Shown here: positions 6,572 to 12,027 of the stretch, piece after piece
How the letters are laid out: every line of letters begins with the position of its first letter
How positions within the stretch are numbered: the first letter of the stretch is position 1
Source of the DNA: a bacterium
GTDB taxonomy: Bacteria; Hinthialibacterota; Hinthialibacteria; Hinthialibacterales; G963663365
DNA length: 64,000 bases
NCBI GenBank assembly: GCA_963663365.2
Contig: CAXXIH010000001.1
Location: forward strand, 875,209-939,208
Direction: 5' to 3'
The notes under the pieces: generated by a model
Databases searched by the model: none
Told to the model about the DNA's origin: nothing
The model's input: the letters and a program-made list of their open reading frames with translations, nothing else
Program-made: the position numbers and the translations under genes

Positions 6572-6586
6572 GTACCGGATGAGTCA

Positions 6587-6991
6587 TTAGGGGAAACAAG
6601 TTCCATCACTTAATTTCCAGATCAATTTGTTAAGGTTAAAATTTTCCTGTATGAGTACTGCAAGTTTATCTTTGTTTATGTGTGTACTACAAACTGCCTT
6701 CAAAGTCGTTGGGAGTCCGATATTGATTATTTTAAAATTCAGAATTATTGCAAATTCATCAACAATAGCAGTTGCATCATCCATATTGCATTCTGGTACA
6801 TATAAAATACCTGATCGACTTGGATTGCCAATTGCCACGCATTCAAAGGGGTACCACTCAAAACCAGAATTAATTGCTGCATAATCAAGCTTTGCAAAGT
6901 CGTCGAATGCATGGTTAGGGCGATTTGGAGAAGGATTGTGTAATAAAAGATTCCATCTAACAATTCTCCATTCATTCAAGTTTAGATTCAT
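6587..6991 (-). CDS. Hypothetical protein, last gene of the AT-rich TIR-led operon
   Basis: 134-aa ORF, co-directional with the operon. ATG at 6991 has GAGG about 9 nt upstream. I recognise no family motif. Confidence 0.5.
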   Translation of the reverse strand: MNLNLNEWRIVRWNLLLHNPSPNRPNHAFDDFAKLDYAAINSGFEWYPFECVAIGNPSRSGILYVPECNMDDATAIVDEFAIILNFKIINIGLPTTLKAVCSTHINKDKLAVLIQENFNLNKLIWKLSDGTCFP

Positions 6992-7134
6992 TGTCTTTTA
7001 CCTCGTTTTTTGGCATTCCTACTTCATGGTTTATTCGTGTTTTTAGCGACAGAATTTTTCTTATCTTGTTCACCTGCCCGACAAGAGAAGTAAATTTGCT
7101 GTATAAGGATCAATACATTAACATTCTCCTACAT

Positions 7135-7878
7135 TCAGCGAAAAATTGATGGGGGGATGTTAGATTTTCGTTCTATCCGAACACTTCCTGTTTTTAGTCT
7201 CATGTTGAGGCTTTCAATTTGTGACTCAATCATTTCGGCTATGGTTGCCAACTTTTCAATATTTTCGGAAATTGGACCATAGTTTAATGTGCTTTCAATA
7301 GATCTGACTATTGCCGTACCACTTTTCTTTATTTCATCGTGGATTTTTTCGAGATGTGATACTATCGGATCGTGCGGAAGCGCGCTTTCTAGATACGGCT
7401 TCAAATCAATCGTTGTTGTCTCGCAAAACTTCTTCTCACCGTATGCGTATTTGGCAGTAATAACAAAATCGCTAGGGGTGACTTCTGAATCAATATTGTT
7501 ACCAAATATCTTGAAATCTTGTGCTAGATAGAATAACAATTCAGATTCTGGTGGAAGCGCGGCTATTGGATTATTAAATGCAGCGTAATTGCGGAGATTT
7601 TTGTTCTCTTGTTTTTCTCCAAATCGAAAAAAGTCTTTATCAATCTTCAGGCATAAATCTTCGGCAGCGGTTAAACCAGAGTTTTTAATTCTTAAATAAA
7701 ATATGTTGATTGCCGGAAATAAAACTGGAGAGATAGTCACATATGGTCGGTATATGGCTTCGTACTGTGATTGCATGATTTTGACGACATTTTGGTTAGC
7801 CTTAAGTATCCTATATGTAAAGCATGCATATATTCCGGTGATAAATACTAAGAGCGCAGTAAGAGTGAGTTCAATCAT
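7135..7878 (-). CDS. Single-pass membrane protein with a ~220-aa soluble domain (candidate effector), function unknown
   Basis: 247 aa with an N-terminal TM helix (IELTLTALLVFITGIYACFTY). Its start codon overlaps the upstream stop (ATGA at 7875-7878), which indicates translational coupling. The C-terminal 60 aa look like coiled coil. Confidence 0.6.
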   Translation of the reverse strand: MIELTLTALLVFITGIYACFTYRILKANQNVVKIMQSQYEAIYRPYVTISPVLFPAINIFYLRIKNSGLTAAEDLCLKIDKDFFRFGEKQENKNLRNYAAFNNPIAALPPESELLFYLAQDFKIFGNNIDSEVTPSDFVITAKYAYGEKKFCETTTIDLKPYLESALPHDPIVSHLEKIHDEIKKSGTAIVRSIESTLNYGPISENIEKLATIAEMIESQIESLNMRLKTGSVRIERKSNIPPSIFR

Positions 7879-8513
7879 TTGTTGTCCTCGAATAACTTTT
7901 CAAAATTCATGCATGAAGAAAAGTTGATTGGCCAGCCATCAAAAGTCCAGCCATCAAAATAATGCATTTCTTTTGCTTTCAAAAATTTCTGTTTCAGTTC
8001 TTCCTTGTTGGCTATATTTATTAGTTTTCCTAAGTGTTTCATGCCGTTGTCTGATTCGGCGCGAAGAAATATTTCAAATGGCTGGTAGGCTCTTGATCGG
8101 TATACTAAGGTTCGCGGAAACCATGAAGTGTTGATGTTTCCACTAAATGCGCCCTTTAGGCAGAGAAGAAAATCAGATTGCATAATGTTTTCAAAATCGA
8201 TGTATTCAAAATCTGCTCTTTCTTTTAGTAGGTCAGCAGTTATAGAGACTCTTCTGAGTTCAAGGCGCGTATTTCTAACTTCATCGAGTCCGCGCAACCT
8301 ATGGTTCATGCGGCAATAATCGCAGGAAGTTGTTTCGATGCCATTGTTTATAATGTATTTATCTTCTGTCAGCAAAGTGTAAGCACTGTAGTTTTTGTAT
8401 TTAATTGTGATAGATATTGTATAAAGAAAAAGTTCTAAGGCTATGAATCTGTAGTGCTCAAAAGCCATCTCGTTTGAATATCTTGTATTTGGAGGCGGGT
8501 AAAAACAATTCAT
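7875..8513 (-). CDS. Hypothetical protein, possibly the C-terminal portion of a split SEFIR/TIR gene
   Basis: 212-aa ORF from ATG 8513 with no Shine-Dalgarno sequence upstream. The same reading frame stays open for all 39 codons back to the TAA stop of the TIR ORF (8631-8633). Confidence 0.55.
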   Translation of the reverse strand: MNCFYPPPNTRYSNEMAFEHYRFIALELFLYTISITIKYKNYSAYTLLTEDKYIINNGIETTSCDYCRMNHRLRGLDEVRNTRLELRRVSITADLLKERADFEYIDFENIMQSDFLLCLKGAFSGNINTSWFPRTLVYRSRAYQPFEIFLRAESDNGMKHLGKLINIANKEELKQKFLKAKEMHYFDGWTFDGWPINFSSCMNFEKLFEDNK

Positions 8514-8630
8514 TAATTGTTCAAAGAATGAAAATATTGTTGCGAATGAATCTATGTCTCCATTGGATAAGCATAATATTCTTGTGATATCAATGAATTG
8601 ATCTCTGTAAGGTTTGAATTCCTCTATTTT

Positions 8631-9314
8631 TTATATCGTTAGGTCGTCCGAAGACGATTCAGGGTCAAGCGCAAAATGCTTGAGATTATGGGTCATCTTT
8701 TCGTAAAATTCGGTAATTGGCACAAGGCTGAACTTGCTTCCGCTTGTTATCGCATCTTTTGCAGCCTGAAACTGATGTAAGGTAGAGATAGACTGTAATT
8801 CTTCACTTGAAATGTATTTTGGGGGAGTACCAAGTGATGGCTTTGGGTACAAAGGCTTATTGTATATGTTCCTGAGTAGCTGATCATATTCGGCATAAAA
8901 TTTCGAATCCTTGGAAAGATCAATGTATTTGCGGGTTTTTAAGAATGTCGGCAAATATGGTTCTCCATTTTTATCTAATTCCATTACAATCGGTATGAAT
9001 TTTGTTTCATCTACTTTTTTGTACAGCTTGCCGGAAATTATCTGTGATTCTGTGCCAACACCACCTTCTCGTCCATCTGCCTTCTCTGCGTATCTTCTGT
9101 CAATAAATATCAGGACACGAATAATTGTGTCGTCTGTCACCATTTGTTCCATGAATACATTCAAATCTTGCCCCTCGCGCAAATCCCATTTGTCCAATAT
9201 GACTTCTACTCCATCAGACATGAGTTTAGTAGCAATTTCGATAATTGATTTCTCATGCTTAGGTGAAGACCAACTATATGAGATGAATACCTTTGGGATT
9301 GATGTTTCACTCAT
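8631..9314 (-). CDS. SEFIR/TIR-domain protein
   Basis: KVFISYSWSSPKHEKSIIEIATKLMSDGVEVILDKWDLREGQDLNVFMEQMV...VLIFIDRRY...GVGTESQII fits the SEFIR/TIR fold pattern. ATG 9314 has GGAGG 6 nt upstream (9321-9325). The ORF-track start at 9350 is less likely. Confidence 0.75.
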   Translation of the reverse strand: MSETSIPKVFISYSWSSPKHEKSIIEIATKLMSDGVEVILDKWDLREGQDLNVFMEQMVTDDTIIRVLIFIDRRYAEKADGREGGVGTESQIISGKLYKKVDETKFIPIVMELDKNGEPYLPTFLKTRKYIDLSKDSKFYAEYDQLLRNIYNKPLYPKPSLGTPPKYISSEELQSISTLHQFQAAKDAITSGSKFSLVPITEFYEKMTHNLKHFALDPESSSDDLTI

Positions 9315-9572
9315 TACATGCCTCCATGGTTGCAATAAACAATACGGCATTCTTCAAAGCCAATCGGAATTGTACGGTCTGCGAAATCGCAAAGGTCGAA
9401 ATTAGCAAGAATTCATAAGGCCTCATGGCCCGCCTCCTAGCGTGCTACCGGTTGTGCCCACTTACTTTATGATTATTACATCAAAAAGTCCGACTGTAAA
9501 CGACTGAGAGCAGGGGTGCGAAGAGGGAAGGATGATCCGGAAATCGTAATATAACCAAGGCAATAAATATCT

Positions 9573-9701
9573 GGCCAAGGGTCCCCCCATCGGCGGGATT
9601 AACAGCCATCCGGATTGTCTTCCGGATTCTTAAGCCAAAAGCAAAAAGGCCGCTCAAGTGAGCGGCCAGAAAATCTTCACGCTCCCCGGGTAGGACTCGA
9701 A
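9573..9701 (-). repeat. Copy A of the tRNA-Asn 3' end (20 nt) plus its ~110-nt downstream flank
   Basis: Near-identical to 11846-11974. It includes the hairpin GGCCGCTCAAGTGAGCGGCC, the CCCxCC-loop-GGCGGG hairpin and ...CACGCTCCCCGGGTAGGACTCGAA. Confidence 0.85.
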
Positions 9702-9749
9702 TACCGCGCCGATTGCGCGGCACCTCCGATTCTCTCCGGCCAACAAACT

Positions 9750-9878
9750 GGCCGAAGGTCCCGCCGCGGGCGGGATTAACAGCAATCCGGATTGTCTTCC
9801 GGATTCTTGAGCAAAAAGCAAAAAGGCCGCTCATGTGAGCGGCCAGAAAATCTTCACGCTCCCCGGGTAGGACTCGAA
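9750..9878 (-). repeat. Copy B of the tRNA-Asn 3' end plus flank (177 bp downstream of copy A)
   Basis: Same module as copy A with a few substitutions (hairpin loop GCG, CTCATGTGAG). Confidence 0.85.
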
Positions 9879-9926
9879 TGCCGCGATGGCGGTGCGGCAC
9901 CTGCGCTCCGCTCCGGCCTACAAACT

Positions 9927-9975
9927 GGCCAAGGGTCCCGCCATCGGCGGGATTAACAGCCATCCGGATTGCCTT
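9927..9975 (-). repeat. Copy C, partial (distal ~50 nt of the flank module only)
   Basis: GGCCAAGGGTCCCGCCATCGGCGGGATTAACAGCCATCCGGATTGCC starts exactly 177 bp after copy B. It merges into the 3' end of the GIY-YIG ORF. Confidence 0.8.
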
Positions 9976-10180
9976 TTGAATGGCTGAGCAGGAAGCGTTT
10001 GATACCTCGCTTCTTGATCTGCTTTTCCAAAGCCATCGCTTCTGCTCGGGTTTCGCAGCTCTGTGTCCAGACCAGCCTCCAAGGGCCGGGGAATTGCTTT
10101 GTCGTTTTTGTGCTGTGATGATTGGGGTCGTTATGTTGTTGAATCCGGCGTTCCAAGTTGCCGGTTTGTCCGGACGGCAA
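9953..10180 (-). pseudogene. GIY-YIG nuclease superfamily gene, N-terminally truncated
   Basis: SGQTGNLERRIQQHN...WRLVWTQSCETRAEAMALEKQIKKRGIKRF matches the central and C-terminal part of small GIY-YIG proteins. The GIY strand is missing: an in-frame TAA lies 3 codons upstream of the TTG start. Confidence 0.5.
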
Positions 10181-10525: not shown

Positions 10526-10583
10526 CCCAGGTAGGACTCGAATACCGCGCTATATGCGCGGCACCTTCGCTCCGCTCCGGCCT
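10526..10583 (-). repeat. Copy E: tRNA-Asn 3'-end fragment plus island-side hairpin segment
   Basis: CCCAGGTAGGACTCGAATACCGCGCTATATGCGCGGCACCTTCGCTCCGCTCCGGCC parallels 9685-9742 and 9862-9918. Confidence 0.75.
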
Positions 10584-10781
10584 ATGATTTGGATACACGG
10601 ACTGTGAAGAAGATATCCTGGTGGTGATGATGGGATATATAAGATACGAGAGAATAGGAAGCGGAGGATCAATATGGGGCAGCGGGTGAGAATAGGCTGC
10701 GGAAACAGGTGAAAATCTGCCTTTGCGGATGTGGTTGTTGGTGTAAAATAATGAGTTTGTATATTTGAACTTGCTTTTCTC

Positions 10782-11576
10782 ATGGGGGGCATTATGCTGT
10801 ATGCTAGGCTTTACATTGATGAAGTCGGAAATCCAAGCCTTACAGCTTCACATAATCACTTAGCTAACCAATATTTCAGCATCACAGGCGTGATTTTCGA
10901 AAAGAATCATGCAATCACTCATGTGAAACCAGAAATTGAGAAACTTAAAAGTCGATTTTTTCAAAATGCTCCATCCAAACCGACTATTTTTCACAGAAAG
11001 GATATTTCAGGTCGGCGTGGAGCGTTCAAAGTACTGAACATACCGTCAATTCGAACACAGTTTCATACCGAACTTGGCATTTTTCTCCAGTCCTGCGCAT
11101 ATACGGTTATAACTGTTTGTATTGATAAATGGGCTCAATATAAAAAGTATCAAAAATGGACTTTCGATCCCTATAAATACGCTATGGAGTTGATTGTTGA
11201 ACGTTATTTCTATCATCTTTCTGCATATGGATTGACCGGAGATGTAATGATAGAAGCCATTAATAAAAGCCGGGATAATATGATGAGCAATCATTTTGCT
11301 CATATACACTCAGTTGGAACTGCTTTTGTTCCTAATCTATCTGCACGCATTGTAAGCCCCCAATTGAAAATACAAGCAAAGGCCGCAAATATTCCGGGCC
11401 TACAGATTGCCGATTTATTTGCATCACCTAGCCAGAAGCGGGTCATGCACGCGTATGGACAACCAATTAACCCAACGGCTCTGGACGCAGTAATTATCAA
11501 TAGTGGGTTACAGGATGGCCGATACCATAACGACGGCGCCGGAAAAATTTTGGGCTACGGTATGAAATTAATTTAA
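10782..11576 (+). CDS. DUF3800-family protein
   Basis: N-terminal LYIDEVGN and C-terminal GLQIADLFASP match the DUF3800 signature (YIDESG ... LQxADxxA). ATG 10794 is an alternative start. Confidence 0.65.
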   Translation: MGGIMLYARLYIDEVGNPSLTASHNHLANQYFSITGVIFEKNHAITHVKPEIEKLKSRFFQNAPSKPTIFHRKDISGRRGAFKVLNIPSIRTQFHTELGIFLQSCAYTVITVCIDKWAQYKKYQKWTFDPYKYAMELIVERYFYHLSAYGLTGDVMIEAINKSRDNMMSNHFAHIHSVGTAFVPNLSARIVSPQLKIQAKAANIPGLQIADLFASPSQKRVMHAYGQPINPTALDAVIINSGLQDGRYHNDGAGKILGYGMKLI

Positions 11577-11671: not shown

Positions 11672-11790
11672 ACAACAAGAATCAACAAGAATCAACAAGA
11701 ATCAACAAGAATCAACAAGAATCAACAAGAATCAACAAGAATCAACAAGAATCAACAAGAATCAACAAGAATCAACAAGAATCAACAAGA
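11672..11790. repeat. Perfect 10-bp tandem repeat (ATCAACAAGA), 11 full units plus a 9-nt partial unit
   Basis: Read directly: ACAACAAGA at 11672-11680, then ATCAACAAGA x11 at 11681-11790 with no substitutions. Confidence 0.95.
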
Positions 11791-11845
11791 AGTGCCATTT
11801 TTAATATGCATAATGAGTGGCAGAAGGGGGAAGAAGATAATTCTA

Positions 11846-11974
11846 GGCCGAAGGTCCCGCCGCAGGCGGGATTAACAGCCATCCGGATTGCCTTCCAGAT
11901 TCTTAAGCCAAAAGCAAAAAGGCCGCTCAAGTGAGCGGCCAGAAAATCTTCACGCTCCCCGGGTAGGACTCGAA
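11846..11974 (-). repeat. Copy D: the native tRNA-Asn 3' end and downstream flank (reference copy of the repeat family)
   Basis: Contiguous with the intact tRNA. Identity with copies A and B ends inside the T-loop at 11974. Confidence 0.85.
11909..11940 (-). terminator. Rho-independent terminator of tRNA-Asn
   Basis: On the minus strand, GGCCGCTCACTTGAGCGGCC is followed by TTTTTGCTTTT. Confidence 0.7.
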
Positions 11975-12027
11975 CCTACAACCCACTGGTTAACAGCCAG
12001 TTGCTCTGCCTATTGAGCTACCGAGGA
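11955..12027 (-). tRNA. tRNA-Asn (anticodon GUU), CCA not encoded
   Basis: Manual cloverleaf: acceptor TCCTCGG/CCGGGGA (one G-U pair), D stem GCTC/GAGC, anticodon stem ACTGG/CCAGT with loop CTGTTAA, T arm GTAGG-TTCGAGT-CCTAC, discriminator G. Total 73 nt. Confidence 0.9.

Follow-up and report, generated by a model that had tools for sequence, protein, structure and literature searches.

A bSEFIR gene interrupted by a single in-frame stop codon in a low-GC islet of a Hinthialibacterota bacterium

Identification of an interrupted bSEFIR gene

Analysis of a 64,000-nucleotide stretch of a Hinthialibacterota genome (assembly GCA_963663365.2, contig CAXXIH010000001.1, positions 875,209 to 939,208 of the forward strand; the whole stretch is hereafter called the window) identified a gene of the bSEFIR family, a known single-gene defence system, that is split by one in-frame TAA codon into what had been taken for two genes. 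The gene is a bSEFIR family member by the sequence and structure criteria tested, except for its interrupted open reading frame (ORF), and as sequenced it is most likely a disrupted copy, either a pseudogene or the product of an error, and not a functional member. It lies in a 2.9-kb stretch of low guanine-plus-cytosine (GC) content that is a small horizontally acquired islet. An earlier interpretation made from the DNA letters alone, here called the sequence-only reading, had proposed a novel operon of four genes at this place; we consider it likely that the islet instead holds three independent things, the bSEFIR gene, ORF3 and ORF4, and no four-gene system.

The ORF list of the window agreed with that reading on four co-directional minus-strand frames, at 8631-9350 (ORF1), 7875-8513 (ORF2), 7135-7878 (ORF3) and 6587-6991 (ORF4). 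The ORF1 frame is open from 9350, and its real start is the ATG at 9314 (MSETS...), with a GGAGG 6 nt upstream. The stretch was also as AT-rich as had been described: GC content was 36.8% over 6587-9350, compared with a window-wide 50%, and nowhere else in the 64 kb did a 1-kb segment fall below 42%. Neither flanking direct repeats nor an integrase were found for the islet (6575-9480). The elements of the interrupted gene are as follows.

7875..9314, minus strand: bSEFIR gene, 479 codons including one internal TAA (single frame, PADLOC, homologues, AlphaFold2, Foldseek)
8631..8633, minus strand: in-frame TAA nonsense codon, which splits the bSEFIR gene into ORF1 (227 aa) and ORF2 (212 aa)
8514..8630, minus strand: 39 untranslated codons between the TAA and the first ORF2 ATG, in which family-conserved residues are still encoded

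ORF1 and ORF2 share a reading frame, and translation of 7875-9350 shows only one internal stop, the TAA at 8631-8633. The motifs KVFISYS, ILDKWDLREGQDL, VLIFIDRRY and GVGTESQII were all located in ORF1, which matched the Pfam families SEFIR (E 2.6e-17, residues 19-137, 63.9 bits) and TIR_2 (E 1.8e-17, 64.4 bits) with scores that amount to a tie. The PADLOC model for bSEFIR, PDLC03957, was matched by ORF1 over model positions 31-232 (E 1.6e-87) and by ORF2 over positions 268-378 (E 6.2e-14). These matches, together with the fold described below, upheld the suggestion that ORF1 is a SEFIR/TIR-fold module. They overturned the description of ORF2 as a separate protein without recognisable motifs, as ORF2 lies in the frame of ORF1 and matches the back part of the same model. 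ORF2 is this SEFIR protein's C-terminal domain.

Searches with the joined 479-aa protein returned 3571 homologues. Each of the best 120 is one protein, 473-508 aa long, with a query coverage of 90-99%. The closest reach 98-99%, and identity does not exceed 47%. In an alignment of 121 sequences that included the window protein, all 16 of the 16 invariant columns keep the family residue here, among them D41 in ILDKWD and E89 in GVGTESQ. Among SEFIR loci retrieved from metagenomes, an uninterrupted ORF of at least 440 aa was present in 81 of 81. The two closest SEFIR homologues stand alone and have different neighbours. Downstream sequence of 1 kb or more was available for 50 SEFIR loci, 11 of which have a gene closely adjoining on that side; those genes are of diverse kinds. 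ORF1 and ORF2 are thus one bSEFIR gene, because they share a frame broken by a single stop, match consecutive parts of one model, have end-to-end homologues and form a confident single-chain fold. The deposited annotation enters them as two separate proteins.

A different kind of irregularity was seen in one metagenomic SEFIR locus (L134, 4986-7266), where a 255-aa partial SEFIR ORF (model positions 8-190) lies immediately upstream of a full-length bSEFIR gene (480 aa), a tandem partial duplication.

Predicted fold of the joined protein and known bSEFIR biology

The AlphaFold2 model of the joined protein had a mean predicted local distance difference test (pLDDT) score of 92.5 and was continuous through the position of the stop. 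It consists of a SEFIR domain (residues ~1-160), a linker and an all-alpha C-terminal domain peculiar to the family (~179-479). The structural check that had been suggested for ORF1, an AlphaFold model searched with Foldseek, gave a SEFIR fold: the domain superimposed on the Bacillus cereus SEFIR structure 5Y8E with a template-modelling (TM) score of 0.85 and 42% identity, and a profile search of the Protein Data Bank (PDB) found the same structure at 5.6e-51. The best Foldseek matches were SEFIR domains (E 4e-9), whereas TIR domains scored 1e-3 or weaker. Over residues ~7-160 the window protein resembles 5Y8E and 5Y8F at 42-43% identity and TM scores of 0.85-0.87; these structures cover the SEFIR domain only, whereas the window protein adds a C-terminal domain that takes in part of ORF1 and all of ORF2. 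For this domain (residues 179-479; window positions 7875-8780; pLDDT above 90) no significant match was found in the PDB, and the presumed sensor domain of bSEFIR, as modelled, appears to be structurally undescribed.

SEFIR-domain proteins are enriched in defence islands, and B. subtilis gains protection against phi29 from a single SEFIR gene of Bacillus sp. NIO-1130 (10.1101/2022.05.11.491447). The substitution D40A abolishes defence by the Bacillus protein, D40 being the conserved aspartate for SEFIR-SEFIR interaction, and the selection rule of Millman et al. 2022 in the same study was a SEFIR score above the TIR score by HHsearch (10.1101/2022.05.11.491447). From the numbering, D41 of the window protein would be the counterpart of Bacillus D40. 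A later study described bSEFIR as a single-protein system in which the N-terminal SEFIR domain depletes NAD+, yielding ADP-ribose (ADPR) and nicotinamide (10.1101/2024.02.11.579819); a literature search under the name 'bSEFIR' found nothing.

The window protein shares with the bSEFIR family (Millman et al. 2022; PADLOC PDLC03957; prototype from Bacillus sp. NIO-1130) an N-terminal SEFIR domain followed by a helical C-terminal domain, ~480 aa in all. It is collinear at full length with thousands of homologues, keeps D41 and E89, and its gene stands alone in a low-GC accessory region. It differs from the family in the in-frame TAA after codon 228, in being at most 47% identical to its nearest database relative, and in that the stop of its gene overlaps the start of an unrelated membrane-protein gene. 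By analogy with the Bacillus homologue, from whose literature the NADase mechanism is taken, the family would bring about abortive infection by means of one protein. The C-terminal domain presumably senses infection, upon which the N-terminal SEFIR domains would self-associate; their hydrolysis of NAD+, with ADPR and nicotinamide as products, would starve the phage. An intact form of the window gene would then act alone, as both sensor and NADase.

Nature of the internal stop codon

The TAA follows codon 228, at residue 229, inside the folded C-terminal domain and off any domain boundary of the AlphaFold2 model. ORF1 as annotated comprises the SEFIR domain together with the initial three C-terminal-domain helices; ORF2 comprises that domain's last 212 residues. 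The stop falls at a variable alignment column (N, T, D, R, H, E, K or S in homologues), without an insertion or deletion, and the family motif FKPYRDQF comes directly after it in the alignments. The 39 codons past the TAA keep this motif along with the conserved F263 and E265. No ATG, GTG or TTG was present between the TAA and 8513, and no Shine-Dalgarno sequence was visible upstream of the ORF2 ATG at 8513. Judged from the sequence, the bSEFIR gene carries a single nonsense substitution, or a base-call error in its place. The mutation looks recent because the rest of the gene is undecayed. Truncation would remove ~250 residues from the C-terminal domain, and the product most likely has no activity.

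Other accounts of the stop were ruled out. More long ORFs of the window end in TAA than in any other stop codon (21 of 34), which excludes both a variant genetic code and recoding. The position of the stop inside the fold speaks against a functional split that evolved at a boundary between domains, as does the next start, which lies 39 conserved codons further on and lacks a Shine-Dalgarno sequence; this account was rejected. So was a frameshift or an error in a homopolymer, because neither the frame nor the length of the alignment changes at the stop.

Several points weigh against the reading of a disrupted gene beside unrelated neighbours. A wrong base call or an allele present in a minority could account for the stop, and the total absence of further decay also fits an intact gene. 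The overlap between the stop of the SEFIR gene and the start of ORF3 (ATGA) normally suggests co-translation, which here is circumstantial. We weighed an account in which the TAA stems from an error of sequencing or assembly, or is an allele of low frequency; the locus would then encode an intact and functional single-gene bSEFIR system, with ORF3 and ORF4 still unrelated neighbours. Consistent with this, the gene has no second lesion, all family-invariant residues are kept, the 39 nominally untranslated codons are still conserved, and the other SEFIR loci are intact (81/81). However, the difference is a substitution and no homopolymer indel, with alignment length preserved, and substitution errors are uncommon in a polished contig of 1.97 Mb; the deposited annotation, too, has two separate proteins. 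All window proteins tested were singletons at 90% identity, meaning that no sister genome was found. On balance we think an intact gene unlikely and favour the reading of a disrupted bSEFIR copy.

The downstream genes ORF3 and ORF4

Three further features belong to the islet.

9472..9500, minus strand: site upstream of the bSEFIR start that resembles a promoter, TTTACA-17-AATAAT plus an extended TG (consensus match only)
7135..7878, minus strand: ORF3, encoding a transmembrane helix, an immunoglobulin (Ig)-like beta-sandwich and a helical tail (profile searches, AlphaFold2)
6587..6991, minus strand: ORF4, an orphan 134-aa ORF with a GAGG Shine-Dalgarno sequence (matches itself only)

The ORF3 protein had been described as one N-terminal transmembrane helix plus a soluble domain, and both parts were recovered. 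A single N-terminal hydrophobic helix was evident (Kyte-Doolittle 1.96 over residues 2-20), and the AlphaFold2 model (pLDDT 74) places a transmembrane helix at residues 2-43, an Ig-like beta-sandwich at 47-158 and two helices at the C-terminus, which largely correspond to a ~60-residue tail specific to this copy. ORF3 has its own Shine-Dalgarno sequence, GAGGA, inside the end of the bSEFIR gene. Searches found 12 close relatives of 184-193 aa, and a profile search returned 1589 representative clusters at E<=1e-3, 211 of them at E<=1e-30. No PADLOC or NCBIfam match was found, and Pfam gave only a sub-threshold match to RPW8 (E 0.024). Comparison with PHROGs yielded only two weak matches of unknown function. 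A sequence search of the PDB gave no match, and Foldseek found only generic Ig-like sandwiches there (E>1e-3) and only uncharacterised phage proteins in BFVD. These sequence matches place ORF3 in a widespread, uncharacterised, stand-alone family.

Two relatives of ORF3, P0158 and P0245 (349 and 369 aa), carry an N-terminal PF24838 domain ('8xMP', octameric membrane protein) ahead of the ORF3-like region, with E-values of 2.5e-6, just under the Pfam cut-off, and 1.6e-9. These may be true fusions or merged gene calls, and a literature search on 8xMP returned nothing relevant.

The neighbourhoods of the ORF3 family were sampled at 47 genome loci across many phyla and at 8 loci on metagenome contigs, over 8 kb to either side, or less on shorter contigs. 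No SEFIR gene was found near an ORF3 relative in these ~50 loci, no ORF3-like or ORF4-like gene in the 81 SEFIR loci, and no conserved neighbour family in the ORF3 loci beyond near-duplicate contigs. ORF3 relatives usually lie tens to hundreds of bases from the upstream gene, normally without overlap, and are nearly always lower in GC than the surrounding locus. With SEFIR co-occurrence absent in both directions and no conserved neighbour, ORF3 is an independent mobile gene that merely abuts the SEFIR gene here.

Whether this mobile gene could itself be a defence gene was considered separately. ORF3 might by itself constitute a defence or exclusion factor, as yet undescribed, that acts on the membrane independently of bSEFIR and sits beside it because defence genes cluster. 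The family's distribution is wide (the 211 representative clusters found at E<=1e-30) and patchy among phyla, its GC content is below that of the surrounding DNA, and prophages occasionally carry it. Some copies lie among genes for restriction-modification methyltransferases, Mrr, AbiGi, TerB_N, T5orf172 and transposases, and several of the 150 nearest neighbours are restriction-modification methyltransferases. Many other neighbours, though, are housekeeping genes. The protein shows no catalytic or pore-forming signature, its beta-sandwich has no informative structural match, and a surface or exclusion protein of a mobile element, or a role unrelated to phages, is equally possible. We regard a defence role of this kind as improbable, and we give only a slim chance to the more specific idea that the ORF3 family is an undescribed single-gene membrane-acting anti-phage or exclusion factor that is here perhaps translationally coupled to the bSEFIR gene.

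ORF4, which had been called a gene of unknown kind, kept that standing. It matched only itself among 5.8 billion proteins, and nothing in any profile library, the PDB or 140 fetched loci. An open frame of 134 codons in DNA of 35% GC is unlikely to arise by chance, as estimated from base composition, and ORF4 is probably a real gene, but an orphan.

Comparison with Thoeris

Type I and II Thoeris systems pair the TIR protein ThsB with the effector ThsA, which carries SIR2/SLOG or Macro/transmembrane modules. The sequence-only reading had cast the four ORFs as a novel SEFIR/TIR-led system of this general design, in which ORF1 would signal or deplete NAD+ and ORF2-ORF4, above all ORF3, would form an undescribed effector half. 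Some features do fit. The ORFs are co-directional, no terminator was predicted between the four of them, the ATGA overlap of the ORF2 stop with the ORF3 start at 7875-7878 is real, and ORF3 relatives sometimes adjoin restriction-modification genes. As in Thoeris, the first gene has a TIR-superfamily fold and a transmembrane protein is encoded downstream.

Against this, ORF2 is the SEFIR protein's C-terminal domain. SEFIR did not co-occur with ORF3 or ORF4 in any of the ~50 and 81 loci, the relatives of ORF3 stand alone and normally do not overlap the gene upstream, and ORF4 has no homologues. The sequence-only reading had named beforehand a lack of synteny between homologues of ORF2-ORF4 and TIR genes as telling against the system, and such synteny was seen in 0 of ~50 ORF3 loci and 0 of 81 SEFIR loci, with ORF4 lacking any homologue to examine. 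Scans of Pfam, PADLOC and NCBIfam gave no match to ThsA, ThsB, SIR2, SLOG or Macro, in agreement with the earlier remark that SIR2, SLOG and Macro motifs are missing from ORF2-ORF4. Unlike Thoeris, moreover, the SEFIR domain of bSEFIR is itself the NAD+-depleting effector, and the transmembrane protein here is not the conserved partner of any TIR or SEFIR gene. The locus is not a novel multi-gene system because conserved synteny is lacking, and it is not Thoeris because neither ThsA nor ThsB was found. The proposal of a four-gene, Thoeris-like system with an undescribed effector half is accordingly hard to credit, and a lone bSEFIR gene with two unrelated neighbours is the reading that we retain.

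The adjacent tRNA-associated region

Upstream of the islet lies a tRNA-Asn(GTT) gene (11955-12027, minus strand). The 3' 20 nt of this gene (CTCCCCGGGTAGGACTCGAA on the plus strand) and ~110 nt downstream of it, including the terminator hairpin, recur at 9571-9996 in two and a half tandem units of 177 nt. A diverged copy of the tRNA-like part of these units, with a diverged tRNA 3' end, was present at 10526-10584. In the copies of the tRNA end, a different hairpin sequence, rich in GC, takes the place of the 5' part, and the copies were not recognised as tRNA by either ARAGORN or Rfam. The repeats may represent what is left of att sites after serial integration of islands; alternatively, they may form a local repeat family.

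A 75-aa ORF (9953-10180, minus strand) lies between the tRNA-like units. Of the GIY-YIG nuclease domain, which has 78 positions, it matches 18-71 (E 4e-12). The ORF is apparently truncated at its N-terminus and is probably the remnant of a mobile element. A DUF3800 gene (10782-11576, plus strand; 40% GC; Pfam 5e-10; no PADLOC match) lies between the repeat at 10526-10584 and the tRNA-Asn gene and has the look of another small insert of foreign origin. The interval from this gene to the tRNA-Asn region contains a perfect microsatellite with a 10-nt unit (CAACAAGAAT) in ~12 copies (11673-11791), which could be a slippage-prone tract. The region upstream of the islet looks like a tRNA-associated accretion zone for foreign DNA.

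Implications

Through a single nonsense codon, a defence system known to consist of one gene can pass for a new operon of several genes, and annotation pipelines then enter the two halves as separate hypothetical proteins. The locus is of little consequence for new biology, and its value for further work is minor. The C-terminal, presumed sensor domain of bSEFIR is confidently modelled and has no solved structural relative, and the ORF3 family is a sizeable, uncharacterised family of predicted membrane proteins from accessory genome regions, which makes it a lead, if only a mildly novel one.

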